A stretch of 64,000 bases of DNA from Candidatus Lustribacter sp. (GTDB lineage Bacteria; Vulcanimicrobiota; Vulcanimicrobiia; Vulcanimicrobiales; Vulcanimicrobiaceae): assembly GCA_965277805.1 (NCBI GenBank), contig OZ255842.1, forward strand, positions 3,168,001 to 3,232,000, read 5' to 3'. The position numbers and the translations under genes are program-made. The notes beneath the pieces were generated by a model. The model was not told the DNA's origin, searched no databases, and saw nothing but the letters and a program-made list of their open reading frames with translations. Shown here piece after piece: positions 3,518 through 21,764 of the stretch; position 1 is the first letter of the stretch; every line of letters starts with the position of its first letter.

Positions 3518-3521
3518 GTTG

Positions 3522-4640
3522 TTAAGCGGCGGCTTCCTTCCAGGGCTTGACGTTGACGTGGATGCAGTCTTTTTCACCCTGGCCGCCGACCGAGCGGATC
3601 GCGAGATCGACTTGGTCGAGCGAGAACGTGTGCGTGAGCGCGTTCTCGATCGGGAAGCGGTGCGAAGCCAGTTGCTGCATCGCGAGTTCGCACGCCGCGT
3701 AGCTGTGACCGCGTGCGCTCTTGATCGTGACGTACTTGAGCGTCAGCTCTTCCATCGGGAAGTCGGGGAACGTCTTCGATTCGTTGCCCTGCACGACCAG
3801 CGTGCCGGCCTTGCCCTTGAGCGCGCGCAAACCGGTGAAGAACGCCTTCTGTCCGGCGCCTGCCGTGCAGTCGATCGACACGTCGACGCCCTTGCCGGAC
3901 GTCACTTCGCGGACTTTCTCGAGCACGTCGGTCTGCTCGACGTCGATGATGACGTCGGCGCCGAGCTGCTTTGCGACTTCGAGACGCTTTTTGTCTTTCG
4001 ACGTGCCGCTGATGATGATCAGATCGGCACCGGCTTGTTTCGCGGTGACGACTTGGCACAAGCCCTGCTGACCCGGACCTTGAATGAGCACTTTCGAGCC
4101 GTAGCCGATGCCCGCTTCGAACAGCGTCCACTGCACGCCGTTGGCCATCGGCGTGCCGATGCCGGCGAGCTCGGCGCTCACACCGTCGGGAACTTTGTGA
4201 CAGACCGCGTTCCACGGCATGTAGAGATAGCGCGCGAAACCGCCCCACAGATGCGGCGCGATGTCGGAGGTGGTGTAGCCGTAACGGATCGCACCCGGAT
4301 TGTGGTGCCAGTCGGTGAAGAAGCAGTGGCGGTACTCACCCTTGTGGCACCACTCGCACTTCGTGCACGGCAGATAGTGCTCGAGGAAGACCAAGTCGCC
4401 TTCCTTGAGGCCCTTGCGCTCGAGCCACTTCTTGCCGGCTTTGTAAATACGGCCGACGTTCTCGTGACCCATGATGACGTTGTCGATCGACCCTTTGTAA
4501 TTCTTCACGTCGCTGCCGCAAATGCCGGCAACTTCCACCTTGAGGATCGCCGACTCGTCGTCGATCTCAGGCATCTTGAATTCGCGAAGTTCGGTTGTGC
4601 TCGGGCCCGTTTTGACCGCGCAAGGCACCATTTCTGCCAT
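3522..4640 (-). CDS. Zinc-binding (MDR family) dehydrogenase
   Basis: GICGSD, GHE, structural-Zn CxxCxxC..C, GPGQQG nucleotide-binding loop. Confidence 0.9.
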   Translation of the reverse strand: MAEMVPCAVKTGPSTTELREFKMPEIDDESAILKVEVAGICGSDVKNYKGSIDNVIMGHENVGRIYKAGKKWLERKGLKEGDLVFLEHYLPCTKCEWCHKGEYRHCFFTDWHHNPGAIRYGYTTSDIAPHLWGGFARYLYMPWNAVCHKVPDGVSAELAGIGTPMANGVQWTLFEAGIGYGSKVLIQGPGQQGLCQVVTAKQAGADLIIISGTSKDKKRLEVAKQLGADVIIDVEQTDVLEKVREVTSGKGVDVSIDCTAGAGQKAFFTGLRALKGKAGTLVVQGNESKTFPDFPMEELTLKYVTIKSARGHSYAACELAMQQLASHRFPIENALTHTFSLDQVDLAIRSVGGQGEKDCIHVNVKPWKEAAA

Positions 4641-5585: not shown

Positions 5586-5599
5586 GGCATTTGGGCTTC

Positions 5600-6544
5600 A
5601 TGACGCTTACGACCGTTACCCGCACGCAAGGAAACAATCAGGCCTTCAAGGAGGGCGTGGTCAAACCGCGCACGTTCACGCCCGAATTCATCGAGATCCC
5701 GGTGCTCGTCGACGGCTTTCGCCGCATGGTGCGCGGGCTCGAATTCGACATCTGCGAGATGGCGATCACGACCTACCTGACCGCCCGCGAACACGGCATC
5801 CAGTTCACCGCGGTGCCGGTGTTTCTCGTGCGCGCGTTCCATCACGGCGCAATCCTCGTCAACAAAAACGCCGGCATCAAAACACCGAAAGATCTCGAAG
5901 GCAAACGCGTCGGCGTGAACCGCGGCTACACCGTGACGACGGGTGTCTGGGCGCGCAGCATCCTCGCCAACGAGTACGGCGTCGACTTGAAGAAAATTAC
6001 CTGGGTGCTCTCGGGCGACGAACACGTCGCAACGTACGTCGCGCCGCCGAACGTCGTACCGATCGAGGCCGGCAAAAAGATGGACGAGATGCTGATCTCG
6101 GGTGAACTGGTGGCGGCGATCGGCCTCGAGGGGACGAACGATCCCAACGTCGGTCCGCTGATTCCGAACGGGCTCGAAGCGGGCCTCGCCGCGTTCAAGA
6201 AAACCGGCCACTATCCGATCAACCACCTCGTCTCGATTCGCAACACCACGCTCGCCGAACACCCCGATCTTGCTGCCGACGTGTTCGAAACGTTCGCCAA
6301 GTCGAAGGAGCTCTACGTGGAGAAACTCCGCGCCGGCACGATCGAAAAGCCGACACCCATCGACGAGATGCACAAGCGCGTGATGGAGATCAGCGGCAAA
6401 GACCCGCTCCCCTACGGCATCGAACCCAATCGCAAAGTCCTCGAAGAAATCATCGCCACCGCCACCGCCCAAGGCATCCTAACCAAACCCTTCACCGTCG
6501 AAGAAATGTTCACACCGAGCGTACGCGATCTAGTAAGCGCCTAA
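5600..6544 (+). CDS. 4,5-dihydroxyphthalate decarboxylase-like / SBP-fold protein (second paralogue)
   Basis: FRRMVRGLEFDICEMAITTY, RAFHH, GYTVTTGVWAR, YPINH, DPLPYG; no signal peptide. Confidence 0.75.
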   Translation: MTLTTVTRTQGNNQAFKEGVVKPRTFTPEFIEIPVLVDGFRRMVRGLEFDICEMAITTYLTAREHGIQFTAVPVFLVRAFHHGAILVNKNAGIKTPKDLEGKRVGVNRGYTVTTGVWARSILANEYGVDLKKITWVLSGDEHVATYVAPPNVVPIEAGKKMDEMLISGELVAAIGLEGTNDPNVGPLIPNGLEAGLAAFKKTGHYPINHLVSIRNTTLAEHPDLAADVFETFAKSKELYVEKLRAGTIEKPTPIDEMHKRVMEISGKDPLPYGIEPNRKVLEEIIATATAQGILTKPFTVEEMFTPSVRDLVSA

Positions 6545-7577: not shown

Positions 7578-8705
7578 TCAGGTCGCGTGCTGCCAAGGAT
7601 CGATCGTGACGTGAATGGCCTGATTGCCGAATTTGTCGCGGATCTCGCCGCCCACCAGACGCAGCGCTTCATCGACGCCTTCGAGACCATACTCGTGCGT
7701 CGACATCGCTTCGAGGTCGACCGTGCCCGAGGACATCAATTCGAGCCCCATCTCGACGGCTTTGAAGCTATGCCCGCGCACGCCGCGGAAGTTGATCGTC
7801 TTACCGATGATCGTGTCGAGCGCGAAACCGTCGATCGCTTTGTGCTTGAACGCGGCGGCGATGAAGCGGCCGTGGCGCGCTTTGAGGATGTCGAGTCCGG
7901 CGTTGATCACTTCGCTTGCGCCGCCCGACGACACGTCGAGCACGAGGTCTGCGCCTTTGCCGCCGGTGATCTCGTTGACGCGGTCGCGCAGTGATTCTTT
8001 GTCGACTTCGATCGTGAAGTCGGCGCCGAGTTTCTTCGCAACCTCGAGCCGCTGAGCATCGCTCGCGAGGCCGGTCGAGATCACCGTGCGCGCGCCGGCG
8101 GCTTTCGCGGCAACGACGCACGCCAAGCCCTGCTGTCCCGGACCTTGCACGACGACCGTTTCGCCGACGCTCGCGCCGCCGTCGAGAAATGCCCACTGAA
8201 AACCGTTGCCCAGCGGCAGGGCCATCGCGGCCATGCGCGGCGGCACGTTGGCCGGCACCTTGTGCATCACGGCGCGTGGATGGATGTACTGGAACTGGCT
8301 ATAGCCGCCCCACAGGCCTGGCCACACCGTCGTCGTCGTCGACCCGTAACGCAAGCCGCCGTTGATGCGGTTGGTGCCTGAGCACGCGCGGTATTCGCCG
8401 GCGCGGCAGAGATCGCAGCTCCCGCACGGGAGATATTCCTCGAGCGCCACGTAATCGCCGACCTTCACGCCCCAACGCTCGGCAGCTAGGTCGCCGAGCT
8501 TCTCGATGATGCCGACGTTCTCGTGGCCGAGGATGCGCGGCAGACGCGTGGCGTCGGCGTACCCCGGCACGTCGGCGCCGCAGATGCCCGCACGCAGCAC
8601 GCGCAGGATCCCGGCGTCGGCCGGAATCTCCGGCAGCTCGAACTCTTGAATCTGGGTTTGTTTGGGCGCGATCTGGACCGCGGCGCGCAGGGTGTCGGTA
8701 GCCAT
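7578..8705 (-). CDS. Zinc-binding (MDR family) dehydrogenase, paralogue of 3522-4640
   Basis: GICGAD, GHENVG, CGSCDLC..C, GPGQQG, RGHS. Confidence 0.9.
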   Translation of the reverse strand: MATDTLRAAVQIAPKQTQIQEFELPEIPADAGILRVLRAGICGADVPGYADATRLPRILGHENVGIIEKLGDLAAERWGVKVGDYVALEEYLPCGSCDLCRAGEYRACSGTNRINGGLRYGSTTTTVWPGLWGGYSQFQYIHPRAVMHKVPANVPPRMAAMALPLGNGFQWAFLDGGASVGETVVVQGPGQQGLACVVAAKAAGARTVISTGLASDAQRLEVAKKLGADFTIEVDKESLRDRVNEITGGKGADLVLDVSSGGASEVINAGLDILKARHGRFIAAAFKHKAIDGFALDTIIGKTINFRGVRGHSFKAVEMGLELMSSGTVDLEAMSTHEYGLEGVDEALRLVGGEIRDKFGNQAIHVTIDPWQHAT

Positions 8706-8811
8706 GATGTGCTCCCCTCAGTCGCCTTGCGGCGCGTCTCCTGCCCGGCTCTTGGCAAAATCGCAGCATTGCCTCAAGTCCGCTACAGGTTCCAAGACTA
8801 CGCTAGGTCGC

Positions 8812-9081
8812 ATGACGATGATCCCGCTTCTCCCCGACAGCGACGGTGACTGCACGGCGAACCTGCGGGCGGCCCTCAAGGACGCCGGCGGCGAAGACCT
8901 CGCGATCGACCTCGAGCGCGTGCCCTACCTCTCATCCCAAGCGCTGACCGAACTGGCGCGTTTCCGGCGCCAGCATCGCGGCGAACGCATCGTGCTCCGC
9001 CATCCCAATGCGCTCGTGCTGCGCACCTTGCACATCGTGGGCTTCAACAAACTGTTCTCGATCGACAACGCAGCCGCTTAG
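8812..9081 (+). CDS. STAS domain protein (anti-sigma factor antagonist-like)
   Basis: IDLERVPYLSSQAL...VLRTLHIVGFNKLF; TACGCT -10-like hexamer 7 nt upstream of ATG. Confidence 0.75.
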   Translation: MTMIPLLPDSDGDCTANLRAALKDAGGEDLAIDLERVPYLSSQALTELARFRRQHRGERIVLRHPNALVLRTLHIVGFNKLFSIDNAAA

Positions 9082-10352
9082 AACTTCGCGACCAGCTCCT
9101 CGGCAAACTCGACTTCCCAGGTCTTGCCCGGCGGAACGACCGCGTCATAGGGTCTGACGCGCTCGTAGGTCGACGGATCGACCCCGCGCGGCGGCTGACC
9201 CGCCGCAACCGCGTCGACCGCTTCCAGCAGCAGCTGGCGGCACGCGATGATCGCCTTGTCACTGGTTCCGAGATGCTCTTTTGAGCGATCGACGATCGGT
9301 CCCATGCCCTCTTGCAGCGCGTAGTCTTGCGTGTTGAGCCCGACGATGCCGGTGAAGTTCTTCGTCTTCTGCATCTGGCGGTCGATCATGTAGTCGTTCG
9401 ACATGTTCTTCTTGAGCTTGAACGTGCCGGGAATCAGATCGTCGGCGCCGCGCCCCCAGCGCGCGTCATCCTTGGCGTACCATTCGGGCGTGATCGGTAC
9501 GTTTTCGTCGTAACTCCAGATCATGTTGTAGACCATCGTCGACGTATCGTCGATCGGCACCCACATGTGCCCGTCGAGTCGCGGCACGTCGGCCTTGCCC
9601 GTACCGGTCCACGACGTGACGCCGCCGCGCATCTGCTGCGCGGGCATCACGTAGTGATAGACGCGCACGTATTTGCCGTCGTCACCCAGATTGCGCGTGG
9701 AGACGTAGGTGTAGCCGTAGTCGGTACGCTCGACGTCGAGGCGCGGTGCTCCGTCGCGATTGCGGACCCAATTCATGTCGCCGAGCTTCTCATTGTGGGC
9801 GAACGACGAGTGCGCGGTGTCCAGCCCACCCTCGAGCGCTTGCAGGTAGTTCGCGTTTTCGTACGTTTTGGAAACGCCGCGATGCGTGGCGGGCGCGCGC
9901 ACCCATTCGTAATTCGGCGGCGGTGGTTGCAGTTCGCTCGGCCCCATGTAGACCCAAATGATGTTGCCGCCTTCCCACGCAGGATAGGCCTTGATCGTCA
10001 CCTTGGTCTTGAACAGCGAATCCGGCGGTTCGGAGGGCATGTCGACGCAGGTGCCGTTGCGGTCGAATTTCCAGCCGTGATACACGCAACGCAAGCCGCA
10101 CTCTTCGTTCCGGCCGAAGAACATCGGCGCGCGCCGGTGCGGGCAGAACGCATCGACGATGCCGATCTCACCGTTCGTATCGCGAAACGCCACGAGATCT
10201 TCGCCCAGAATGCGCAGGCGCACGGGTGCGCCGTCGTTCTCGGGGAGTTCGCGGCTGAGCAGCGCCGGTTGCCAATACGCCCGGAACAACGCGCCGCCCG
10301 GCGTGCCGGGCCCGACACGAGTGAGACGTTCGTTATCCTGCGGTTTCAGCAT
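9078..10352 (-). CDS. Rieske non-heme iron oxygenase (phthalate 4,5-dioxygenase/LigXa-like family)
   Basis: LTRVGPGTP, Rieske CPH...CVYH, mononuclear Fe site EGGLDTAHSSFAH...QD. Confidence 0.9.
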   Translation of the reverse strand: MLKPQDNERLTRVGPGTPGGALFRAYWQPALLSRELPENDGAPVRLRILGEDLVAFRDTNGEIGIVDAFCPHRRAPMFFGRNEECGLRCVYHGWKFDRNGTCVDMPSEPPDSLFKTKVTIKAYPAWEGGNIIWVYMGPSELQPPPPNYEWVRAPATHRGVSKTYENANYLQALEGGLDTAHSSFAHNEKLGDMNWVRNRDGAPRLDVERTDYGYTYVSTRNLGDDGKYVRVYHYVMPAQQMRGGVTSWTGTGKADVPRLDGHMWVPIDDTSTMVYNMIWSYDENVPITPEWYAKDDARWGRGADDLIPGTFKLKKNMSNDYMIDRQMQKTKNFTGIVGLNTQDYALQEGMGPIVDRSKEHLGTSDKAIIACRQLLLEAVDAVAAGQPPRGVDPSTYERVRPYDAVVPPGKTWEVEFAEELVAKF

Positions 10353-10353
10353 A

Positions 10354-11841
10354 TCAGAGCGCGATACAGATGTTTTTGAGTTCGCTATAAAATTCGAGCG
10401 AGAGGCGGCCGCCTTCGCGGCCGATGCCGGATTCGCGCATTCCGCCGAACGGCGTGCGCAGATCGCGGACGAACCAGCAGTTCACCCACACGATACCCGC
10501 GCGGATGCGGCGCGCCACGCGGTGCGCGCGCTGCAGATCGCGCGTGAAGATCGTTGCTGCGAGCCCGTATTTGACGTCGTTGGCCAGCGCCACGCCTTCG
10601 TCTTCGGTGTCGAACGGCGCGATCGTGACGACCGGGCCGAACACTTCTTCCTGGCAGATGCGCATGTCGTTGCTCACGTCGACGAACGCCGTCGGCTTGA
10701 GGAAGGCACCCTTGTCGAACGGCGCCGGCAGCTTCGGGCGCTCGCCGCCGAAGAGCAGCCGCGCGCCCTCTTTTTTCGCGATCTCAACGTAACTGAGAAC
10801 GCGGTCGTAATGCTCTTTATCGACCAGCGAACCGATCGAGGTGGCTTCGTCGAGCGGATCGCCGAACACGAGCGCTTCCGCCGCCGCCTGATAGCGTTTG
10901 CAGAACTCATCGAAGATCGGGCGCTGCACGAGCAGCCGTGGCGATGCGAGGCAAACTTCGCCTTGGTTGAGGAACGTCGAGCGAATCGTCTGCGTGACGA
11001 CGAGGTCGAGGTCGGCGTCGGCAAAGATCACCGCGGCAGCCTTGCCCCCGAGCTCGAACGACACTTCCTTGAGACCCTCGGCGGCCGCTTTCATGATCGC
11101 TTTGCCGGTCGTCGTTTCGCCGGTGAACGAGATGCAGTCGACGCCGGGGTGCTCGGTGATCGCCGAACCGGCGGCGTTGGGGCCGAAGCCCTGCACGATG
11201 TTGAGCACGCCCGGCGGCAGGCCGGCTTCGTTCGCGATCTCGCCGAGAAAGCTCGCGGTGATCGGCGTGAACTCAGCCGGTTTGCACACCACGGTGTTGC
11301 CGCACGCGAGTGCGGGCGCAAGTTTCCACGTGAGCAGCAAGAGCGGCAAGTTCCACGGGCTGATGCAGCCGGCGACGCCGACCGGCTCGCGCAGCGAGTA
11401 GTTGAGGAACTTGTCGTCGACCGGATTGCAATCCGTGCCGACGTATTTGATCAGCTCGGCGAAAAACTCGAAGTTGTACGCCGAGCGCGGGATGTCGAGG
11501 TGCGAGCTCTCGCGGATCGGCTTGCCGGTATCGAGCGATTCCAGCTCGCTCAGCTCCGTCATGCGCGCCTTGATGCCGGCGGCGAGCTTCATCAGGATCG
11601 CCGAACGTTCGGCGACCGTCATCTTCGGCCACGGGCCTTCGTCGAACGCGCGCCGCGCAGCCTTGACTGCGAGATCGACGTCGGCGTAGTCCGCTTCCGC
11701 GACGCGGGCGATCAATTCACCGGTCGCCGGATTCGTATCGTTGAACGTCTTCCCGCTCTTGGCATCGACGTAGCGGCCGTCGATGAACAGCTTGACGTCG
11801 AGAATGCCGGTCCGCGGACGCGTGCGAAGTTCCTGTAACAC
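10354..11841 (-). CDS. 2-hydroxymuconic semialdehyde dehydrogenase (DmpC/XylG-like aldehyde dehydrogenase)
   Basis: PWNLPLLLLTWK, FTGETTTG, ELGGK, NQGEVC, WFVRDLRTPFGG; meta-pathway context. Confidence 0.85.
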   Translation of the reverse strand: MLQELRTRPRTGILDVKLFIDGRYVDAKSGKTFNDTNPATGELIARVAEADYADVDLAVKAARRAFDEGPWPKMTVAERSAILMKLAAGIKARMTELSELESLDTGKPIRESSHLDIPRSAYNFEFFAELIKYVGTDCNPVDDKFLNYSLREPVGVAGCISPWNLPLLLLTWKLAPALACGNTVVCKPAEFTPITASFLGEIANEAGLPPGVLNIVQGFGPNAAGSAITEHPGVDCISFTGETTTGKAIMKAAAEGLKEVSFELGGKAAAVIFADADLDLVVTQTIRSTFLNQGEVCLASPRLLVQRPIFDEFCKRYQAAAEALVFGDPLDEATSIGSLVDKEHYDRVLSYVEIAKKEGARLLFGGERPKLPAPFDKGAFLKPTAFVDVSNDMRICQEEVFGPVVTIAPFDTEDEGVALANDVKYGLAATIFTRDLQRAHRVARRIRAGIVWVNCWFVRDLRTPFGGMRESGIGREGGRLSLEFYSELKNICIAL

Positions 11842-11843
11842 GA

Positions 11844-12224
11844 TTACCCCTTTGTCGTTGCCGTCGCGCGCCCCATGCCCCAGTGCACGCTTGGAAAATC
11901 AGTCACCAGCACGCGGACGACGCTCTCATCCACGGCGTAGAGTTTGGCCAGCAGCTCGAGCAACTCGGCGACGAACGCCGCGCGCTGTTCTTCGGGCCGG
12001 CCTTCGAGAATGGACGTCCAGGCGACGAGCCACGGCGGCGATTCCGCGCCGGTTTTGCCTGCGACCATCACCTTCGCCGGATCCAGTTCGTCGAACGCCA
12101 CGCGCACCTGCACCGGCTTCACGCCGAGCCCGCGCGTAATCAATTCCAGCACGGCGTCGAAGGCGGCCGCGCGCGAGGTCTGCGGCGGCAGCGGGATCGA
12201 CGACTCGATGCGAACGATCGGCAT
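11844..12224 (-). CDS. Tautomerase superfamily protein (double-length 4-oxalocrotonate tautomerase-like)
   Basis: N-terminal M-P (Pro-1); second unit ILEGRPEEQR...VRVLVTDFPSVHWGMG. Confidence 0.75.
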   Translation of the reverse strand: MPIVRIESSIPLPPQTSRAAAFDAVLELITRGLGVKPVQVRVAFDELDPAKVMVAGKTGAESPPWLVAWTSILEGRPEEQRAAFVAELLELLAKLYAVDESVVRVLVTDFPSVHWGMGRATATTKG

Positions 12225-12243
12225 CGCTAGAGCCCCGCCGGCG

Positions 12244-13038
12244 TCAAGTGCAGCGCAGGCTGAGCGAGCCGAGGTGCGCGATCGATACGCGCACGACGTC
12301 GCCGGGTGCGATCGAGATCGCATCGGTCAGCGCACCGGTCATCACGACCGTTCCGGCCGGAATCGATTCGCCGTGTTCCGCCACTTTGTTGGCAAGCCAC
12401 GCGAGACCGATCGCCGGATCGCCGAGAATCGCAGCGCCGGCCGCCGTGGTGACGACCTCGCCGTTCTTCTCGAACACGACGCCCAGCGTGCGCAGATCGA
12501 GGTCTCTCGCGGGAACGCGATAGGCCGAGATCGTGTGGCGCGCGGCCGACGTGTTGTCGGCGATCACGTCGGTCAGCGTGAAGCGGAAATCCTTATAGCG
12601 GCTGTCGATGACCTCCATCGCGCAGCACGCCGACTCGATCGCCGCGCGCGCATGTTCCGGCGTCACGTTGGGACCCTGCAGATCGCGCCCGGTGACGATC
12701 GCGATCTCGGGTTCGGCCTTGGGATGAATCAACGACGCGACGCTGAGCGGATCGCCTTCGCCGATCATGCGCGAGGCGATGAGCAAACCGTAGATCGGTT
12801 CGCCCACGCTCATCTGCTTCTGTTTCGCAACGCTGGTCAAGCCGAGTTTGAGCCCGGAGATCCGCGTGTTCTCGCTCTTCGTCTGCCCGATCACGAGCCG
12901 TTTCTGAATCGCGTAGGCGGTATGCTCGTCGAGTTCGGGCCACGTGTCGGTAAGCGGTTCGATCTCGAACCGCCCGTCGTTCGCCGCCTGAAGTCTGCCG
13001 AGCGCCGCCGCGGCTTTATCGGTCGCGACCGACGTCAT
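12244..13038 (-). CDS. 4-oxalocrotonate decarboxylase (DmpH/XylI-like)
   Basis: KLGLTSVAKQKQM, LIHPKAEPE, EVIDSRYKDFRFTLTDVIADNTS. Confidence 0.85.
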   Translation of the reverse strand: MTSVATDKAAAALGRLQAANDGRFEIEPLTDTWPELDEHTAYAIQKRLVIGQTKSENTRISGLKLGLTSVAKQKQMSVGEPIYGLLIASRMIGEGDPLSVASLIHPKAEPEIAIVTGRDLQGPNVTPEHARAAIESACCAMEVIDSRYKDFRFTLTDVIADNTSAARHTISAYRVPARDLDLRTLGVVFEKNGEVVTTAAGAAILGDPAIGLAWLANKVAEHGESIPAGTVVMTGALTDAISIAPGDVVRVSIAHLGSLSLRCT

Positions 13039-14078
13039 CAGACCGCCGCGAGTTCCGGCGCCGGCTTTTCACCCTTCGCACCGGCTAGTTCGATCGCGCA
13101 CTCGACGATGATGTCTTCTTGACCGCCGACCGCTTTGCGCGCGCCGACCGCTTCGAGAATCTTGGCCGTCGGGACGCCGAAGCGCTTGGACGCGTTCTCG
13201 GCGTGACGCAAGAAGCTCGAGTACACGCCGGCGTAGCCCAGCACGAGCGCCGGGCGGTTGACGATCGGCGTGATGCCGATCTCGCCGCCGATGATGTCTT
13301 CGGCCACGTCCATGACGCCGTAGAGATCGATGCCCGTCTCCCAGCCCATTTTGTTGAAGACCGCGACGATTGCTTCGGTCGCCGCGTTGCCCGCGCCGGC
13401 TCCGAGGCCGCGGCACGCGCCGTCGATGTTGTCCGCACCCGCCTTGACCGCGGTAACGGCGTTACCGACGCCGAGTCCGAGGTTGTTGTGGGCGTGGAAA
13501 CCGACGTGCGTCTTCGGCTGGAGTTCCGCGCGAAGCGCCGAGACGCGATCGTGCACCATGTCCATCGTTTGCGCGCCGGCCGAGTCGACGACGTACACGA
13601 CGTCGGCGCCGTAGGATTCCATCAGCTTCGCTTGCACGACGAGTTCCGGCGCTTCGATCAGATGCGACATCATCAGGAAGCCGACGACTTCCATGCCCAT
13701 GTCTTTGGCCGCCGCGATGTGCTGCGCCGAGATATCCGCTTCGGTGCAATGCGTCGCGATGCGGGCGACGCTGGCGCCGCGCTTGCGCGATTCCTTGAGG
13801 TCGTGAATAGTGCCGACGCCGGGCAGCAGCAGCACGGCGATCTTCGCCTGCTTCACCGTTGCAACGGCCGCCTCGACGAGCTCGAGCTCATCGACCTTCG
13901 AGATGCCGTATTGGATCGACGAACCGGCTAAGCCGTCGCCATGCGTGACCTCGAGCAGCGGCACGCCGGCCGCGTCGAGCGCGCCGGCGACGCGCACGAT
14001 CTGATCGACCGTGAACTGGTGGAAAACGGGGTGCGAACCGTCGCGGAGGCTGACGTCGGTGATGCGGACTTTCGGCAT
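13038..14078 (-). CDS. dmpG: 4-hydroxy-2-oxovalerate aldolase
   Basis: DVSLRDGSH, EVTHGDGL, ATHCTEAD, HAHNNL, GYAGVYSSFL, VGGQED. Confidence 0.93.
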   Translation of the reverse strand: MPKVRITDVSLRDGSHPVFHQFTVDQIVRVAGALDAAGVPLLEVTHGDGLAGSSIQYGISKVDELELVEAAVATVKQAKIAVLLLPGVGTIHDLKESRKRGASVARIATHCTEADISAQHIAAAKDMGMEVVGFLMMSHLIEAPELVVQAKLMESYGADVVYVVDSAGAQTMDMVHDRVSALRAELQPKTHVGFHAHNNLGLGVGNAVTAVKAGADNIDGACRGLGAGAGNAATEAIVAVFNKMGWETGIDLYGVMDVAEDIIGGEIGITPIVNRPALVLGYAGVYSSFLRHAENASKRFGVPTAKILEAVGARKAVGGQEDIIVECAIELAGAKGEKPAPELAAV

Positions 14079-14079
14079 G

Positions 14080-14979
14080 TTACTTGGCTCCAACCAGCGC
14101 GTTGCGGCGCTCGTAGACTTCTTCGGCGACCCGGACGGCAGCCGCCGTCATGATGTCGAGGTTGCCCGCGTACGCAGGCAGGTAATGGGCGGCACCGGTG
14201 ACTTCGAGAAACACGCTGACCCGGTTGCCGTCGAACACCGGACCCGATTTGAGTTTGTAGCCCGGCACGTAGGTCTGCACGTCGGCGACCATCTTGTGCA
14301 CCGATTCCGTGATCGCAGCTTGGTCGGGCGTCGTCTCGGTGATGGCGTTGACCGTGTCGCGCATGATCAGCGGGGGCTCGGCCGGGTTGAGGATGATGAT
14401 CGCCTTGCCGCGCTTGGCGCCGCCGACCTGCTCGACCGCCTTGGACGTCGTCTCGGTAAACTCATCGATGTTTGCGCGCGTACCCGGGCCGGCCGATTTC
14501 GAAGCGATCGTCGCCACGATCTCGGCGTATTCAACGGGCTGCACGCGCGCGATCGCGCCGACGATCGGAATCGTGGCCTGACCACCGCACGTCACCATGT
14601 TGACGTTGGTGACGTCACCTTCGAGGTGCTCCTTGAGATTCAGCGGCGGAATGATGTAGGGGCCGACTGCGGCCGGCGTGAGGTCGACGGCGAACTTGCC
14701 GGCGGCCTTGATCAGCGGCGCGTTGTACTCGTGCGCCTTCGCGCTCGTGGCGTCGAAGATCAGATCGATCTGATCCATCAAGTCCTTGCGCGCGAGCAAG
14801 CCTTCGATGCCGGTGTCGATCGCGGCGACGTCGTGTTTACGCGCACGCGCCAGACCGTCGCTTTTGGCATCGATACCCACGAGGGCGATCATCTTGAGAT
14901 TCTTGTTGCGGAAAATCTTGAACATGAGGTCGGACCCGATGTTACCTGAACCGATGACCGCGACGTTTAGTGGGGGCAT
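14080..14979 (-). CDS. dmpF: Acetaldehyde dehydrogenase (acylating)
   Basis: [42 protein letters not shown]. Confidence 0.93.
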
Positions 14980-15009
14980 TGCGTGTGTGCCTCGAGTGAG
15001 CGATGAGTG

Positions 15010-15798
15010 TTAGACGAAGTGAATCGAAACCGAACCGAGGATACCGAAATCGGCGCTGGCGACGTCACCGCGAGCGACCGGTACCATGGCGCACAGAGCG
15101 CCGGGCATGATGACGTCACCCGCATGCAGTTCCAACCCGTCGGCAGCCAAAGTGTTTGCAAGCCAAGCAACCGCACGATACGGGTTAGCGCCCAACACCG
15201 CGGCGCCGGCTCCGGTTCCGACCAGCTCGCCGTTCTTTTCGAAGACGGTGCCGACGGTCCGGGTATCGATGCCGAGCGGCGACGTGCGCTTTTTGCCGAC
15301 GACGAAACGCGCTGACGAGCCGTTGTCGGCCACCGTGTCGACGAAGGTGATCTTCCAGTTCATGATCCGCGAATCGACGATCTCGAGCGTCGGGACCAGA
15401 TAGTCGGTCGCCGCCAGCACGTCGAGGTCGGTGAGCCCCGGCCCGCGGAGATCGCGCGCGAGAACGATCCCGATCTCGGCTTCGACGCGCGGCTGGATCA
15501 GCTCGCTCAAGAGGCAGTCATCGCCGTCGGCGAGCCGCATCGAGGCGAACAGGTGCCCGAAGTCCGGCTGATCGACCCCAAGCATTTTCTGCATGGCCTT
15601 GGCCGTCAGCCCGACCTTCATGCCGGCGACTTTCTCACCCGCCGCCTGACGCCGTTTGACGTTGGCCAGCTGGATCGCGTACGCGTCGCCGGCCGTCAGC
15701 GTTGCCCGCGACGAAAACGCCTCGATCTGAACGCGGTCGCGCTCGGCGGCGAACAGCTCGTCGGCAAAGGCTTGAACGTCGAGAACGGCAGACGGCAT
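15010..15798 (-). CDS. 2-keto-4-pentenoate hydratase (MhpD/DmpE-like)
   Basis: KVGLT..MQKMLGVDQPDFGHL, LIQPRVEAE, EIVDSRI..W.I...DTVADN. Confidence 0.88.
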   Translation of the reverse strand: MPSAVLDVQAFADELFAAERDRVQIEAFSSRATLTAGDAYAIQLANVKRRQAAGEKVAGMKVGLTAKAMQKMLGVDQPDFGHLFASMRLADGDDCLLSELIQPRVEAEIGIVLARDLRGPGLTDLDVLAATDYLVPTLEIVDSRIMNWKITFVDTVADNGSSARFVVGKKRTSPLGIDTRTVGTVFEKNGELVGTGAGAAVLGANPYRAVAWLANTLAADGLELHAGDVIMPGALCAMVPVARGDVASADFGILGSVSIHFV

Positions 15799-16430
15799 CA
15801 GCGGCTCGGAACGGACTTAGGCTGCAGGTACCGCTTGAGTTTCTCGGCCGTGAGCTTTTCGTTGGGATCGTACTCGGGCGCGTTCTCGATCTGCTCGAGG
15901 TCGTTGAGCCCGCTCTTGCGATAGATGCGGTTGGTGATCACCGCGAGCCGCGCCGGGCGCGTTTCGTCGGCGTTGAAGTGCTGGACGATCGTGTTCGGCG
16001 GCACGTAGATGCAGTCGCCCGCTTCCCACTCGAAGCGCTTCTCATCACCGTCGGGCACCCACATGTACTTCTCGCCGTCGGGAATCGACAGATCGCAATC
16101 CATGTGGATATCGTAGCCGCGGCCTTCGATCACATAGCACGCCTGTTCGGCGAGCTGCCGGTGTTTGCCCGAACGGCTGCCGGGCGGAATCACTTGCATG
16201 TACGCGTCGACCGTTTCGGCGCGCGTGTTCATGCCTTCGTTCACGATGTGCTTAAGCAGTCCGTCGGGCGCGTTTTCCCACGGCATCTGCGAGGACTTGA
16301 CGACCTTCGGACGATCGGCGTTGCGTTCGGCTGCGGTCGCGGCATCGTCGAGCTGATCTTCGTACAGGCTGCCGGTCAAATTGCCTTGGAGATATTTCCC
16401 GTATTCATCCCACGGGGCTTGTTCTGCCAT
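15798..16430 (-). CDS. Cupin domain protein (degenerate metal site)
   Basis: SGKHRQLAEQACYVIEGRG ... WEAGDCIYVPPNTIVQHFN. Confidence 0.8.
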   Translation of the reverse strand: MAEQAPWDEYGKYLQGNLTGSLYEDQLDDAATAAERNADRPKVVKSSQMPWENAPDGLLKHIVNEGMNTRAETVDAYMQVIPPGSRSGKHRQLAEQACYVIEGRGYDIHMDCDLSIPDGEKYMWVPDGDEKRFEWEAGDCIYVPPNTIVQHFNADETRPARLAVITNRIYRKSGLNDLEQIENAPEYDPNEKLTAEKLKRYLQPKSVPSR

Positions 16431-16434
16431 TGTC

Positions 16435-17043
16435 CTAATCTCCGTGCGCGTGTTCGGGAATGCGTTGCGGTTCTTGATCTTGGTGCGGCGGCGGATCTTC
16501 GCGCGGCACGAAGTCGCCTTGCGTCGGCGTCGGCTGCGCCGGCATCTTGTCGACGATCTTCTGGAAGAGCATGTTCATGAAGAGATACATCGGCTTCGTC
16601 TTCATGACGAGCGCGCGCGCCGGTTTGTGCAGATTGCGATTGAAGTGCTGATGCACGCAGTTGTTGTGCACGATCGCCGCGTCGCCGGCTTCCCACTCGT
16701 AGCGGATGCCGTCGTGAACTTCGGCGCCTTCACCATCGAGGATGTAGAACACGGCCTCGTTGACGTGGCCGTGCTTCTGCGAAGAACCGCCGGGCGAATA
16801 TTCTTCGAGATGGATGTGAAGCGTTTGGCCCAAGCCGTCCTTGGGTTCCATGTAGTGCTTGCTGAATTGCTGCGGGCCGCTGTGGAAGGGCGTTTCGCGT
16901 CCTTTGATCACGCGCGGTAGCGAACGCAACCGCTTCAGCTCGTGGCTGAGGTTGTACTCGCCCTGGATCCCGCGCACGAAAACCCGGTCGGTCTGCGCGC
17001 CGTAGTCCATCCGCTTTTGTCCGTTGCCGTTATCGCTTGCCAT
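16435..17043 (-). CDS. Cupin domain protein (intact H-x-H/E/H metal site)
   Basis: SQKHGHVNEAVFYILDGEG ... WEAGDAAIVHNNCVHQHFN; AGGAG RBS. Confidence 0.85.
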   Translation of the reverse strand: MASDNGNGQKRMDYGAQTDRVFVRGIQGEYNLSHELKRLRSLPRVIKGRETPFHSGPQQFSKHYMEPKDGLGQTLHIHLEEYSPGGSSQKHGHVNEAVFYILDGEGAEVHDGIRYEWEAGDAAIVHNNCVHQHFNRNLHKPARALVMKTKPMYLFMNMLFQKIVDKMPAQPTPTQGDFVPREDPPPHQDQEPQRIPEHAHGD

Positions 17044-17125: not shown

Positions 17126-18001
17126 ATGGCAAGTGCGCTCCCGCTGGTCGAGCTGGTCGAGGTCCACACGAGCGACGACGTCGTGCACGCGGGCGCGCTC
17201 GCGAAGCCGGCCAAACGCGTGGGCGGGACGCCGCGCTTCGACGCTGTCCTCATGATGCACGGCGCCGCCGGCGCGTTCAGCGAGGGCTTCTACCGCAACT
17301 TCTCGGCCGCGCTTGTCGAGCGCGGGGTGACGACGCTGCGCGCCAACAACCGCGGCCACGACGTCATCAACCGCGGCAACGGCCGCGGCACGCTCCAGGG
17401 CGCGGCCCTCGAGCGGCTCGACGACTGCGTGCTCGACTGGCAGGCGTGGCTCGGCTTCCTTCAGTCGCGCCGCTACCACCGCATTCTGCTCTTCGGGCAT
17501 AGCCTCGGCGCGGTCAAATCGGCGTACTACCTCGCGACTCAGCCGGATCCGCGGGTCCAAGGGTGCGTGTTGGCCTCACCGCCGCGCTTCAACACCGACC
17601 TGATGCTCGCGTCCGAACGCGGGCCGGAGTTCGGGGCCACCCTCGAGCGGGCGAAGGCCCTCGTGGCCGCGGGCACCCCCGGCGAGCTGATGCCGACGAC
17701 GTTCCCCCTTCGCTCGATCAGCGGGGCCGAGGCGTACCTCGCCAAGTACGGGATGGGCGCCAAATACGACGTCCTCGAGAACGCCGCCAAGATTCCGTGC
17801 CCGGTCTTCGCCCTAGTCGGCGAGCTCGAGCTCTCCGACTCGACCTTCCGCGACTATCCCGGCGGCTATCCGAAGGTGCGCCAAAAGAAGCGGGACCTCG
17901 ACTTCGTCGTGGTCCCGAATGGGGATCATTTCTACACCGACGCCCAGACGTTCGCGGTCGAACATCTGCTGGCGTGGATCGACCGGGAAAGCCTCGACTA
18001 G
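17126..18001 (+). CDS. Alpha/beta hydrolase
   Basis: MHG, NNRGHD, GHSLG nucleophile elbow, GDHFY. Confidence 0.8.
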   Translation: MASALPLVELVEVHTSDDVVHAGALAKPAKRVGGTPRFDAVLMMHGAAGAFSEGFYRNFSAALVERGVTTLRANNRGHDVINRGNGRGTLQGAALERLDDCVLDWQAWLGFLQSRRYHRILLFGHSLGAVKSAYYLATQPDPRVQGCVLASPPRFNTDLMLASERGPEFGATLERAKALVAAGTPGELMPTTFPLRSISGAEAYLAKYGMGAKYDVLENAAKIPCPVFALVGELELSDSTFRDYPGGYPKVRQKKRDLDFVVVPNGDHFYTDAQTFAVEHLLAWIDRESLD

Positions 18002-18849
18002 GAGACCGGGTCGCCCTCTAACTCGACGGCGCGCGGGACCGGAGTGTCGAGGACGAACGACTTCGAGTTGTCTTCTTTCTTCTTGCCGATTAGACCGTGG
18101 ATGTGGTTGCGCAGCTGGAGGAAGCTCGGTTCCGAGCGCGTGCCGACTTGATCGCGCGGCTGCGAAAGCGGGATCGGGATCTCCTCGAGCACGGTCGACG
18201 GCGGGGTGCTGAGCACGAAGACGCGATCGGACAAGTAGACGGCCTCGTCGATGTCATGAGTGACGAGCAGCATTGTGATGCCGAATTCATCACGCAGCTC
18301 GAGCGTCAGATCTTCGAGATCGGCGCGCGTCAGGGCGTCGACCGAAGCGAAGGGCTCGTCGAGCAATAGGATCTCCGGCCGGAACGCGACCGCGCGCGCA
18401 ATGGCGACGCGCTGCTGCATGCCGCCCGAAAGCTGCCAGGGGAAGTGCTTGGCGAACTTCGTCAGGCCGACCGCTTCGATCGCGCGCTGTGAGGCGTTCT
18501 CTTTTTCGGCTTGCGTGATGTCCTTGCGCTTACGCAGCGGGAACATCACGTTGCCGGTGACCGTGAGCCACGGAAAGAGCGAACGCGCGTAGTCCTGAAA
18601 AACGAGCACCATCTGCGGCGGGGGCTCGGTGATCAACGTCCCGTGAAGCTTGACCGACCCTTTGGTCGGCGCGAGCAGCGCGCAAATCGTCTTGAGGAGC
18701 GTGGTCTTTCCGCAACCGGAAGGACCGACGATCGAGACGAATTCGCGCGCCCGGACGTTGAGCGTGATCTCCTGAACGGCGAGTGTGCCGTCAGCGTACC
18801 GCTTTTGCAGCTGGTTGACGTCGAGGAGAATCTCGCTCGGATTCGACAT
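17998..18849 (-). CDS. ABC transporter ATP-binding protein (NitT/TauT family)
   Basis: GPSGCGKTT, LSGGMQQR, LLLDEPF, VTHD. Confidence 0.93.
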   Translation of the reverse strand: MSNPSEILLDVNQLQKRYADGTLAVQEITLNVRAREFVSIVGPSGCGKTTLLKTICALLAPTKGSVKLHGTLITEPPPQMVLVFQDYARSLFPWLTVTGNVMFPLRKRKDITQAEKENASQRAIEAVGLTKFAKHFPWQLSGGMQQRVAIARAVAFRPEILLLDEPFASVDALTRADLEDLTLELRDEFGITMLLVTHDIDEAVYLSDRVFVLSTPPSTVLEEIPIPLSQPRDQVGTRSEPSFLQLRNHIHGLIGKKKEDNSKSFVLDTPVPRAVELEGDPVS

Positions 18850-18882
18850 GCGTTGACCTTTCTTTATAACTACGCCGGACAG

Positions 18883-19656
18883 TTAGACCGGGCGGGCCGT
18901 CTGTCCGTAGTGCCAGGCAAGCACCTTGTGCTCTGCCCACACGAAACCGGTGTTGAGAAGATAACCGAGGATTGCCAGCAGTAGGATGCCGCCGTACATT
19001 TCCGGGATCGCGAACGTTCGCTGAGCCTGGAGGATATAATACCCGAGACCGTCCGTGCTGCCTATCATTTCAGACACCACGATCATAATAAACGCGATCG
19101 AGAGCCCGGTCCGCATGCCGGCCGCGATCATCGGGGTGGCCGACGGCAGAATCACGCGGATCAGCGTTTCGAAGGGCGTCAGGCCGAAGATCCTGGCCGT
19201 ATCCAGCCGTTCGGTCGGCACCAGGCGCGCGCCGTCGGCCGTATTGATGAGGATCGGCCACATGGCGCCGAAGCAGATCACGACCATCTTCATCTGGTCG
19301 CCGATACCGATCAGCAGGATGCCGACCGGGATGATGGCGGTCGCCGGAATGGCGCGCCAGAACTGAAGTACCGGGTCGAGCAGCTGATAGATCCGCTTGA
19401 ACGAACCGATCACGATGCCGATGGTGATGCCGATCAGCGAAGCGAACGTGTAGCCGACCACCATGCGGTAGAGACTCGGCACGGCTTGCTGACCGAAGGT
19501 CGGCGAGAACCACTCCTTGAGGAAGGTCAAGAAGATCGTCGAGACCGGCGGCACGTAGACCGTCTGCTTCCACATCGCGATGAGCTGCCACAAGAGCAGC
19601 AGCACGACGACCGTGATGATCCCGGCGGCGTTGCCGCGATTGAAAACCTTGCTCAT
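18883..19656 (-). CDS. ABC transporter permease (NitT/TauT family)
   Basis: Multiple TM segments; VILPSATP..AGMR; EMIGSTDGLG. Confidence 0.9.
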   Translation of the reverse strand: MSKVFNRGNAAGIITVVVLLLLWQLIAMWKQTVYVPPVSTIFLTFLKEWFSPTFGQQAVPSLYRMVVGYTFASLIGITIGIVIGSFKRIYQLLDPVLQFWRAIPATAIIPVGILLIGIGDQMKMVVICFGAMWPILINTADGARLVPTERLDTARIFGLTPFETLIRVILPSATPMIAAGMRTGLSIAFIMIVVSEMIGSTDGLGYYILQAQRTFAIPEMYGGILLLAILGYLLNTGFVWAEHKVLAWHYGQTARPV

Positions 19657-19660
19657 GACG

Positions 19661-20437
19661 TTAGGTCACCCGTTCCCGCGCGGCCGGCGTCCAGAAGACG
19701 ACCTTGTGCTCGAGCGTAAAGTACAACGTGTTCAGAAGGTAGCCGAGAATTCCGGTGAGGATGATCGCCGCGTACATGGGCGGCAGGCGGTTCGCCTGTT
19801 CCATCTGCGAGATGTAGAAGCCGATGCCGCTGTTGCCGGCAATCAGTTCGGTCGTGATCGTAACGATCAGGGCGATCGTAGCGCTAATACGAAAGCCGGT
19901 CGCGATGCTCGCAACGGCCGACGGCAGCGTTACGCGCCAGAGCGCTTCGTAGCCGGTAATGCCGAAGTTGCGCGCGACGTCGAGCGCTTGCGGGTCGATC
20001 GCGCGCACGCCGTAGATCGTGTTGATCAGCATCGGCCAGAACGCCGCGTACGTGATCACCGAGATGCGCATCGTGGCCCCGAGGCCGAAGAACAGAATCG
20101 CCAGCGGAATCATCGCGACCGACGGGACCGGACGCAAGAACTCGACGATGATCTTCAGCGCGTCGAACACGGGCTTGTACGTCCCCATCAGAATCCCGAT
20201 GGTGATGGCAAGAACCGTAGCCAGAGCCAAGCCGCGGACGTACACCGACAACGTAACGCCGATCTGACTCGAAATGTCACCATTGATGAGCCCGGTCCAT
20301 AAGGCCGCGAAAACCTGGGTCGGCGGCGGGACGTAGCTCGTGAGCCACCCCTGACGCGCGACAAACTCCACGATTACAACGCAAACCAGGAAGAAGGCGT
20401 AGCCGCCCCAGTTTACCGATGACTTTTTTTTCTGCAC
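19661..20437 (-). CDS. ABC transporter permease (NitT/TauT family)
   Basis: FLRPVPSVAMIP, VTLPSA..ATGFR, ELIAGNSGIG; GTG start at 20437 is my estimate. Confidence 0.85.
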   Translation of the reverse strand: MQKKKSSVNWGGYAFFLVCVVIVEFVARQGWLTSYVPPPTQVFAALWTGLINGDISSQIGVTLSVYVRGLALATVLAITIGILMGTYKPVFDALKIIVEFLRPVPSVAMIPLAILFFGLGATMRISVITYAAFWPMLINTIYGVRAIDPQALDVARNFGITGYEALWRVTLPSAVASIATGFRISATIALIVTITTELIAGNSGIGFYISQMEQANRLPPMYAAIILTGILGYLLNTLYFTLEHKVVFWTPAARERVT

Positions 20438-20528
20438 GAGTAGGGTACTCTCCGGAACTTCGCACCAGCGAAAGCGAGGCATTAGGGATGTTATTGTTTG
20501 TCCCTTCCGATTAAGCACGCGAACGCGC

Positions 20529-21452
20529 TTAAAGCGGCGATTTCGCGGGCGGCGGCGACGTACTCCAGCGCTCCAAAACGGCACCGCTGCCGCCCGCAAC
20601 CGAGCGCACCACAAGGGCGTCGTTTGTCTTGCCGTCGAGAGCCACCAGCGCCGGTCCGGCCACCGTCGAGTTGCCCGTTAGTTGCGGTGCGGCTTCGCGG
20701 ATGAGCTGAACGAAGATTAAGAAATCGGGGCCGGTGCACGCCAGGACGTGGCTGCTGGTATCCAGGTCGCACGCCGCGACGCCTTCCGGTATGGCGATGC
20801 GAAAGCGCCGCGTTCCGGCCCGATCGTAAATGTCCAAAATGCCGTTGGCGCCGGCGACCGCGATCTGACCGAACGTTTCATCGATGCGCAAAACGCGCCG
20901 CCCGGCCAGGCCCGGTGTCGGAAACGACGAGCGGATGCTTCCACCTTGCGGATCAACGATTGAAATTTCGGGCCGATCTGCAAAGGTGACGTAAAGTTCA
21001 CGCGTGACCGGATCGGCGACGAAGTGCGCCGGCGCGCGGCCCGGCAATGCGACGGGTTTGCCGCGTGAAAATGAACCTGTATCAAAAACGGAGAGTTCGC
21101 TGCGCGCAGCACCGTCGACATACAGCCGCCCGGTGACGGCGTCGTCCACCATGTCCTCAACCGCGCCGCCGGCGTCGACTGAGCGGACGATCGTTTTCCG
21201 GTCGGGATCGATCTCGGTGATCTTGCCGTCGCCCGTGCCGGCGAAGACGTGGCCGCCAAGCGGCTCGAGCGCCAGGCTGCGCACACCGCCGAGTCGCACG
21301 GTCGCGAGCAACTTGCCGCTGTCGGCATCGAGAACCGCCACCGAGCGTGCGCCGGCCGCGAAGACGCGCCGCCGGGCAGCGTCGATCGTCAGCGCGGCAA
21401 ACGGACCGCGCTGCGCCAGCGGTTGGGGGGCGGTCACCGGAGCAAAGACCAT
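20529..21452 (-). CDS. YncE/YVTN-like beta-propeller protein
   Basis: Repeated blades (IDAARRRVF, VLDADSGKLL, DAVTGRLYV, DPVTRELYV). Confidence 0.65.
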   Translation of the reverse strand: MVFAPVTAPQPLAQRGPFAALTIDAARRRVFAAGARSVAVLDADSGKLLATVRLGGVRSLALEPLGGHVFAGTGDGKITEIDPDRKTIVRSVDAGGAVEDMVDDAVTGRLYVDGAARSELSVFDTGSFSRGKPVALPGRAPAHFVADPVTRELYVTFADRPEISIVDPQGGSIRSSFPTPGLAGRRVLRIDETFGQIAVAGANGILDIYDRAGTRRFRIAIPEGVAACDLDTSSHVLACTGPDFLIFVQLIREAAPQLTGNSTVAGPALVALDGKTNDALVVRSVAGGSGAVLERWSTSPPPAKSPL

Positions 21453-21469
21453 CGGGCTCGGGCTTTGGA

Positions 21470-21727: not shown

Positions 21728-21764
21728 ATGGTGCCTCGCCGTCAACGTTCTCTGGAGGCCCGTC

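Follow-up and report, generated by a model that had tools for sequence, protein, structure and literature searches.

The gentisate and salicylate 1,2-dioxygenases are class III bicupins (solved structures 3bu7, 2d40 and 2phd) with a cupin fold, paired HxH...HxH motifs, Ala at the position of the canonical Glu and a metal site of three His (3-His). As set out in PMC10306065, the N-terminal barrel is active and the C-terminal one vestigial in the E. coli gentisate 1,2-dioxygenase (GDO) and salicylate 1,2-dioxygenase (SDO) bicupins. The same traits, with what would be one active and one vestigial barrel, are met in two small adjacent genes, cupin1 and cupin2, that head a nine-gene meta-cleavage operon in a 64,000-nucleotide (nt) stretch of the genome of Candidatus Lustribacter sp. 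(contig OZ255842.1; the whole stretch, G000:C1:3168001-3232000, is called the window, and feature positions are in its numbering). Cupin1 and cupin2 are very probably subunits of one heteromeric enzyme. The order of the genes, their families, their co-occurrence, the fusions and the conserved metal site are observed; that the two chains bind, the dioxygenase chemistry, the substrate, the metal and the tie to the lower pathway are inferred. That this enzyme is the ring cleaver feeding the operon is the best single reading, tentatively held, and is closely rivalled by a role in an upper or parallel pathway.

The pair departs from the gentisate and salicylate dioxygenases in being encoded by two genes, in the weakness of the similarity (E 1e-5), in having Phe99 where SDO has Arg127, in a His-rich tail and, in some lineages, in its nickel-transporter neighbours. 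The operon downstream of the pair is a catechol-type lower pathway, whereas gentisate-type cleavage leads into the maleylpyruvate pathway.

A two-subunit precedent exists in hydroquinone 1,2-dioxygenase (HapCD, PnpCD, HqdAB), which the same source describes as a heteromeric cupin ring cleaver with one functional site of the 2-His-1-Glu type (PMC10306065). It resembles the pair in having two different cupin-containing subunits and one functional site, and with this precedent a heteromeric cupin ring cleaver would not be new in kind. Its site differs from that of cupin1, where the ligands are three His and Ala occupies the canonical Glu position. Its chains were absent both from the sequence matches to the PDB (E up to 1) and from the fold matches listed; any kinship would be a distant one. 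The hydroquinone enzyme has subunits of about 18 and 38 kDa, unlike cupin1 and cupin2 in size. Monocupin members are also known: 5-nitrosalicylate 1,2-dioxygenase is a protein of about 200 amino acids (aa) in which three His bind Fe(II) and the C-terminus is disordered (PMC10306065). Its structure (8ch4) matches the cupin1 model at Z 11.7 and rmsd 3.3 with 132 residues aligned; it is a homotetramer without a partner gene, and a sequence match was obtained solely via a fused relative of the pair (P0246, E 0.012).

The first-pass annotation had drawn an analogy to 3-hydroxyanthranilate 3,4-dioxygenase which, as proposed for the pair, is a small cupin ring cleaver yielding muconic semialdehyde. 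The analogy does not fit. That enzyme has a 2-His-1-Glu site (PMC10306065), whereas cupin1 has Ala at the Glu position and a 3-His site; it gave no sequence match to the pair in any search here, and Pfam and NCBIfam profiles find no decarboxylase or deaminase for 2-amino-3-carboxymuconate semialdehyde (ACMS) in the operon. The operon-head position held here by the pair is elsewhere occupied by enzymes of unrelated folds, VOC catechol 2,3-dioxygenase and LigB protocatechuate 2,3-dioxygenase-like enzymes, the LigB-family protein of Paenibacillus abyssi being an example.

The operon

The first-pass annotation described a tightly packed minus-strand run of nine genes, 9078-17043, and the coordinates (open reading frame (ORF) list), families and junctions agree with it. 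Families were assigned by Pfam and NCBIfam profile searches, with bit scores compared to the curated NCBIfam cut-offs. In minus-strand order the genes are:

16435-17043, minus strand: cupin1, 202 aa, Pfam Cupin_2 at 44.8 bits; proposed catalytic subunit
15798-16430, minus strand: cupin2, 210 aa, Pfam Cupin_2 at 34.7 bits; proposed non-catalytic partner subunit
15010-15798, minus strand: 2-oxopent-4-enoate hydratase-type (DmpE/MhpD type), TIGR03220 at 283 bits, below the cut-off of 408.8
14080-14979, minus strand: acetaldehyde dehydrogenase, acylating (DmpF type), TIGR03215 at 450.6 bits, above the cut-off of 282.25
13038-14093, minus strand: 4-hydroxy-2-oxovalerate aldolase (DmpG type), TIGR03217 at 492.5 bits, above the cut-off of 286
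12244-13038, minus strand: 2-oxo-3-hexenedioate (4-oxalocrotonate) decarboxylase-type (4-OD; DmpH type), TIGR03218 at 258 bits, below the cut-off of 350.55
11844-12224 (ORF to 12323), minus strand: tautomerase-superfamily protein of about 126 aa, PF01361 at 41 bits; likely start at the Met-Pro at 12224
10354-11841, minus strand: 2-hydroxymuconic semialdehyde (HMS) dehydrogenase-type aldehyde dehydrogenase, TIGR03216 at 666.6 bits against a cut-off of 693.25
9078-10352, minus strand: Rieske oxygenase alpha subunit, phthalate-dioxygenase-like, with Rieske and LigXa_C domains

The junctions from cupin1 to the Rieske gene, taken from the ORF coordinates, are +4, -1, +30, -14, -1, about +19, +2 and +1 nt. 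The operon is thus tightly (translationally) packed, and the start of the hydratase gene overlaps the stop of cupin2 by 1 nt. A promoter and terminator scan gave no minus-strand promoter-like site, and 3 terminator-like sites, fewer than the shuffle mean of 8.0; it says nothing about where the operon begins or ends.

Pfam and NCBIfam assignments give a complete dehydrogenative-branch catechol meta-cleavage set in this one operon: HMS dehydrogenase, 4-oxalocrotonate tautomerase (4-OT), 4-OD, hydratase, aldolase and acylating dehydrogenase. Three of these six lower-pathway enzymes score below their equivalog cut-offs, and the substrates may therefore carry substituents. The tautomerase is about twice the length of the matching 4-OT models (59-64 positions), with a match in its C-terminal half only. 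The best solved relatives of the Rieske protein are 9ina (E 5.8e-92) and 7fhr, a 'putative phthalate 4,5-dioxygenase' (E 2.6e-89); no reductase gene lies near its gene, whose 3′ end is overlapped by 4 nt by a plus-strand STAS-domain gene (8662-9081). The earlier statement that the window holds no catechol 2,3-dioxygenase or LigAB-type gene also stands, as none of the 77 VOC (PF00903) and none of the 19 LigB (PF02900) hits of the genome fall inside it.

Metatranscriptome contigs from four runs (three labelled peat, one soil) are 90-99% alike to the operon, most of them 90-95%, and so derive from relatives. They cover both the cupin and the lower-pathway genes and bridge the DmpF/hydratase and 4-OD/DmpG junctions, with DNA carry-over being possible. 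The cupin2/hydratase junction was unbridged (31 letters each side) among the contig pieces listed, and such contigs cannot show transcription units.

Two cupins as probable subunits of one enzyme

Cupin1 and cupin2 are paralogous, with 29% identity over 128 residues (E 6e-19). One genome per species was scanned for relatives of cupin1; 455 were confirmed, and the analysis used the best 80 loci (named L followed by a number). A cupin2 orthologue directly follows cupin1, on the same strand and within 400 nt, in 73 of the 80. Among the other seven, five have a contig end just after cupin1 and the remaining two are L076 and L090. At L076 (L076:10669-11176) the cupin2 orthologue is in two frames, which may reflect a frameshift or an assembly error; at L090 one partnerless cupin1 stands beside a second cupin pair.

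Nature has also joined the two. Fused relatives of 340-385 aa exist, and a shorter one, P0077 (317 aa), likewise consists of a cupin1 and a cupin2 part. In P0246 (351 aa) the identity is 49% to cupin1 over the N half and 48% to cupin2 over the C half. The cupin1-like half also comes first in P0251, P0255, P0280, P0290 and P0307; some other long relatives have the halves in reversed order. An exhaustive search yielded 724 representatives at E up to 0.001, and 29 of the best 150 are at least 300 aa long. Two of the checks that the first-pass annotation had proposed, a look for co-occurrence or fusion of homologues and a model of the complex, speak for a heteromer. The complex model of cupin1 (residues 1-175) with cupin2 scored 0.91, and the best of three controls 0.00. 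The mark of 0.91 was reached by 58 of 80 solved complexes and by 2 of 110 mismatched pairs, a calibration that holds only roughly for alignments made, as here, for the analysis itself. At least 99% of contacts are common to the three runs, the pLDDT of the partner is at least 92, and the modelled interface is reciprocal, residues 44-49 of one chain lying against 120-124 or 138-144 of the other. Solved structures include many cupin dimers and bicupins, and the two chains here are paralogous. The pass of the model is therefore to be taken as a resemblance to assemblies of that kind. Homodimers of cupin1 or of cupin2 would be compatible with it, a point that counts against a heteromer. The conserved adjacency, the natural fusions, the complex model and the two metal sites, one intact and one degenerate, each conserved in its family, nevertheless give strong support to the split, heteromeric enzyme suggested at first.

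The metal site

The two motif patterns reported in the first-pass annotation, intact HGHVNE...VHQH in cupin1 and degenerate HRQLAE...VQH in cupin2, were both found, and each is conserved in its family. The cupin1 site consists of His91, His93 and His131, with His133 beside. In the 52 cupin1-type sequences compared, which go down to 30% identity, no change is seen at H91, H93 or A97, and H131, H133, H110, D111, W117 and R44 are each at least 90% conserved. Counted from the conserved Gly of motif 1, Ala97 is at the canonical Glu position, and hence the site is of the 3-His type. In HMMER alignments with solved structures, H91/H93 align with the HxH, and H131/H133 with the second HxH, of the gentisate and salicylate 1,2-dioxygenases.

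The 3-His site is absent from cupin2. Among 21 sequences of its family the second His is Gln in 20 and the first His is replaced in three, and the motif-2 His is present in one only (P0240). In the cupin2-like half of five fused relatives (P0246, P0251, P0255, P0280 and P0077) HxH is kept, and a script found the HQH motif as well in four of the five, all but P0255. Because the fused forms keep HxH there, the dead site of cupin2 looks like a derived trait of the split lineage. The picture proposed is of a bicupin-like metalloenzyme in which cupin1 would carry the active mononuclear metal site and cupin2, its site-less paralogue, would be a structural partner, like the vestigial domain of the gentisate and salicylate 1,2-dioxygenases. 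The metal would be Fe, possibly Ni or Co.

A tail rich in His follows the conserved NMLFQ motif of cupin1: at least five His are present in 89 of 115 homologues, with a median of nine (120 homologues, less one fusion and four sequences without the NMLFQ motif). The tail of the cupin1 in the window (16435-16560) is short, with 3 His, while the two other copies in the genome have 10 and 11.

Sequence and fold kinship

The nearest solved sequences are gentisate 1,2-dioxygenases, followed by salicylate 1,2-dioxygenase. For 3bu7 the E-values are 1.2e-5 with cupin1 (over about 64 residues), 9.6e-7 and 3.3e-6 with the profiles of cupin1 and cupin2, respectively, and 2.4e-12 with the fused P0246. The AF2 model of cupin1 (pLDDT 82.4 from a 52-row alignment, 43 from a 19-row one) is a cupin beta-barrel with fold matches at Z up to 14.4. 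Searches of the ESM Atlas gave unnamed cupin clusters only, and tblastn against plasmids gave three weak, partial hits. The description that suits the enzyme best is that of a new, split form of the gentisate-type cupin dioxygenases, and it fails the curated scores of that family.

The fold comparison is also where a non-enzymatic pair, such as a metal-binding, sensor or chaperone pair, has to be considered. Auxin-binding protein, which is non-enzymatic, is the best fold match of cupin1 and, as 1lr5, the best solved sequence match of the cupin2 protein, and the His-rich tail would suit metal binding. However, the 3-His site is invariant and further conserved polar residues surround it, the pair stands inside catabolic operons, and the pair is very strongly conserved in records whose titles name at least eight phyla. 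A non-enzymatic role is highly improbable.

The ring-cleavage proposal

Two genes beside the operon enter the proposed route and are given here:

7578-8705, minus strand: Zn-dependent alcohol-dehydrogenase-family protein, which co-travels with the cupin pair and the Rieske gene in other phyla
2531-3577, minus strand: 4,5-dihydroxyphthalate decarboxylase-like protein (cytoplasmic, NMT1-like fold family), PDB 9jp7 at E 2.4e-84

The Rieske oxygenase, the Zn-dehydrogenase (which may be a dihydrodiol dehydrogenase) and the dihydroxyphthalate-decarboxylase-like enzymes would make the substrate, a hydroxylated aromatic acid or a catechol. The cupin pair would open its ring to a muconic-semialdehyde-type product, and this would pass to the semialdehyde dehydrogenase, tautomerase, decarboxylase, hydratase, aldolase and acetaldehyde dehydrogenase of the operon.

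That the pair is a ring-cleavage dioxygenase supplying this pathway, as was suggested at first, is a tentative reading for which the evidence is mixed. In its favour are the distant kinship with the gentisate and salicylate dioxygenases, the position in the operon, the status of the operon as the sole lower pathway of its kind in the genome, and the lack there of a catechol 2,3-dioxygenase equivalog. The genome is a single contig of 5.5 Mb whose closest public relatives are titled Eremiobacterota/Vulcanimicrobiota. Genome-wide tblastn found DmpF once, the tautomerase (4-OT) once, one close DmpG (next hit 35% identical) and one close semialdehyde dehydrogenase (next hit 44% identical), and because all four are single the operon is taken as the only catechol-type lower pathway. 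No hit to the catechol 2,3-dioxygenase equivalog (TIGR03211) exceeds its cut-off in the genome, the best reaching 93.5 against 320.2 bits. Within the phylum, a DmpG homologue (E 1e-60) occurs in 4 of 201 genomes. Two of these are in the genus of the window and the two others have DmpFG only, other lower-pathway genes being absent; from this rarity, the whole lower pathway may have been laterally acquired by the genus.

Gene neighbourhoods elsewhere give the proposed upper steps some constancy. A Rieske orthologue, 55-99% identical, is present in 19 of the 80 loci, and seven have all three of the Rieske, Zn-dehydrogenase and decarboxylase-like genes with the pair (L025, L026, L029, L049, L063, L075 and L082), from records titled Vulcanimicrobiota, Limnocylindria, Armatimonadota, Alicyclobacillus and Cohnella. 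The set is contiguous and on one strand in L026, L029 and L049. On the model of the phthalate pathway, such a set would end in a catecholic acid, for which a ring cleaver would be the natural next step.

Three pairs of cupins were found in the genome by tblastn, at 3.184 Mb (the pair in the window), 0.647 Mb and 4.785 Mb. A VanA-type Rieske demethylase gene follows the pair at 4.785 Mb, and the pair at 0.647 Mb is among genes for binding proteins, an Amidohydro_2 gene and a Rieske-like gene. The genome shows an expansion of aromatic-catabolism paralogues: tblastn gives 93 hits with the Rieske protein and 30 with that of 2531-3577, and there are 67 Amidohydro_2 hits besides the VOC and LigB hits counted above; the expansion is extreme, yet the catechol-type lower pathway is single.

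A possible role outside this pathway

A good deal weighs against ring cleavage by the pair, in part at the level of the protein. The curated ring-cleaving families score it far below cut-off (NF049978, 31.7 against 650 bits; TIGR02272, 16.3 against 442.1 bits). Foldseek and VIA-align return generic cupins: auxin-binding protein, DddK, TM1459, KdgF and CENP-C. The ring cleavers 8ch4, 2phd and 3bu7 rank at Z 11.7, 11.4 and 11.2 where the best row is at 14.4, and since they score no higher than other cupins the fold does not tell function. Phe99, which is invariant in close homologues of cupin1, aligns with Arg127 of salicylate dioxygenase, the residue that binds the carboxylate of the substrate.

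The neighbourhoods weigh against it as well. Meta-pathway genes accompany the pair in only six of the 80 loci, five of them closely related to the window (L017-L020 and L023) and one from Paenibacillus abyssi (L069). Its commonest neighbours are uptake genes: a PhnS/Fbp-like binding protein (42/80), a TOBE-type ABC ATPase (34/80), a fused permease (18/80) and TctC (18/80). A paralogous bicupin of 376 aa is present in 23 loci and a thiamine pyrophosphate (TPP) enzyme in seven, porins also occur, and most loci have only uptake genes, the paralogous bicupin, the TPP enzyme or a porin. Cupin1 is 64-75% identical across all these contexts, which suggests that the reaction is the same everywhere and independent of this lower pathway.

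The Paenibacillus abyssi cluster is instructive in this respect. It runs from an MFS gene through decarboxylase-like, LigB-family, Zn-dehydrogenase, semialdehyde dehydrogenase, hydratase, DmpF, DmpG and decarboxylase genes to an Amidohydro_2 gene and an IclR regulator gene, and then to the Rieske gene, cupin1, cupin2 and TctCAB. Its LigB-family gene (HpaD-like, 119 bits) heads the lower pathway, directly before the Zn-dehydrogenase gene, and every step of the cluster can be assigned without the cupin pair. DmpG is 4-15 kb from a LigB-family gene in all five Firmicute carriers examined, and no intradiol dioxygenase was found in these five. In a sister genome (L020:11254-14213) a TauD-family gene, a binding-protein gene and a bicupin gene of 343 aa are interposed between the pair and the hydratase gene, with the bicupin directly before the hydratase. 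Both sites of this bicupin are intact (3bu7 at E 1.4e-10), and it has a 75% identical orthologue in the genome of the window, a two-site gentisate-dioxygenase-like bicupin at G000:C1:4436373-4437395, 1.25 Mb away and after an NMT1-type binding-protein gene. This bicupin is a further candidate for the ring-cleaving step, and the 77 VOC-domain and 19 LigB-domain hits of the genome add many more.

It is accordingly a possibility of some weight, if a doubtful one, that the heteromer is real but is not the ring cleaver of this pathway, acting instead on an imported acid or in an upper-pathway step together with the Rieske, dehydrogenase and decarboxylase set. Muconic semialdehyde would then come from a dioxygenase elsewhere, be it a LigB or VOC enzyme or the two-site bicupin at 4.436 Mb. 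Some facts about this locus resist such a division. Beside the 1-nt overlap of cupin2 and hydratase genes here, the pair directly adjoins lower-pathway genes in L017-L019 and L023. The genome, besides lacking the catechol 2,3-dioxygenase equivalog, has no homologue of the Paenibacillus abyssi LigB-type dioxygenase at E 1e-10, so that the pair may have taken over the role of LigB here. Of its LigB-family genes, those that do exceed curated cut-offs encode a protocatechuate 4,5-dioxygenase beta-like protein and a gallate dioxygenase. Dioxygenases of these two types feed a different lower pathway. A classical extradiol homologue was met in only three of the 80 loci, with a limited query set. Ring cleavage by the pair is narrowly preferred here, as against its placement in another step.

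Metal hints and neighbouring genes

A different kind of departure from the ring-cleavage proposal is chemical. Genes for NikR and a NicO nickel/cobalt permease (347 bits) precede the pair cluster in five Paraburkholderia loci (L044, L048, L052, L058 and L060), and in Alicyclobacillus kakegawensis (L063:18901-19938) NicO follows the bicupin and an EutA-like gene. Together with the His-rich tail of cupin1, these neighbours hint at a Ni or Co enzyme. As they represent two independent lineages only, the NicO/NikR association is a lead and not a finding. The EutA-like ATPase (PF06277, 375 bits) is found with the pair and the paralogous 376-aa bicupin at seven loci, including L086:1297-2967, L063:17252-18853 and L058:4917-6716, and no ethanolamine lyase is in view at these loci.

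The pair might on this evidence be a Ni- or Co-dependent cupin of other chemistry, such as enediol, diketone or flavonol-like C-C cleavage (compare acireductone dioxygenase, Dke1 and quercetinase), or an isomerase or decarboxylase, with a common soil metabolite rather than an aromatic ring as substrate. The EutA-like ATPase and the TPP enzyme, in seven loci each, would be in keeping with that, and DddK, Ni-quercetinase and acireductone dioxygenase-like cupins match the fold at Z similar to that of the ring cleavers. Such a function is nonetheless unlikely: the metal genes are associated with the pair in only six of 80 loci, the tail in the window is poor in His, the nearest sequence relatives are ring-cleaving dioxygenases, and in this genome the pair associates with aromatic oxygenases.

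Other genes in the window

Two further features flank those already described:

5591-6544, plus strand: second, more distant decarboxylase-like paralogue, about 30% identical to the protein of 2531-3577 and without a signal peptide
17998-23272: TauT/NitT-type ABC transporter, its ATPase and two permeases encoded on the minus strand and its SsuA-like binding protein (21992-23272) on the plus strand

The transporter may, tentatively, be the uptake system, its synteny being limited to close relatives. Between 3522 and 7690 the window has a recurring four-gene set, Zn-dehydrogenase, PanB-like hydroxymethyltransferase, cytoplasmic NMT1-like protein and alpha/beta hydrolase, whose counterparts near the cupin pairs of L022, L030 and L037 are 56-79% identical. 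The PanB-like protein scores 175.9 bits with TIGR00222, below the cut-off. It is a speculation that the set forms a separate small pathway, for instance for a pantoate-like compound.

Significance

Literature searches, within openly readable main texts, found no published description of the cupin pair. The families are large, with 1862 and 4458 clusters at 90% identity in a word-based search, and are conserved at 64-75% identity across the phyla counted above under generic names only. Cultured carriers exist in Paraburkholderia fungorum, Alicyclobacillus species, Paenibacillus abyssi and Cohnella kolymensis.

The most far-reaching proposal, and as a whole a rather unlikely one, is that the pair founds a large undescribed family of two-subunit cupin dioxygenases, possibly Ni/Co-dependent and in some lineages provided with their own metal transporter and EutA-like loading ATPase, and that in this peat bacterium the pair would open the ring in a catechol-type meta pathway in place of the classical VOC or LigB extradiol dioxygenase, having displaced it. 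Very few oxygenases use Ni or Co, and the pair would join them if it does so. Should it be a ring cleaver, a fourth type would be added to the VOC, LigB and single-chain cupin enzymes that head meta pathways, and marker-gene surveys of aromatic degradation in peat and soil would all miss it.

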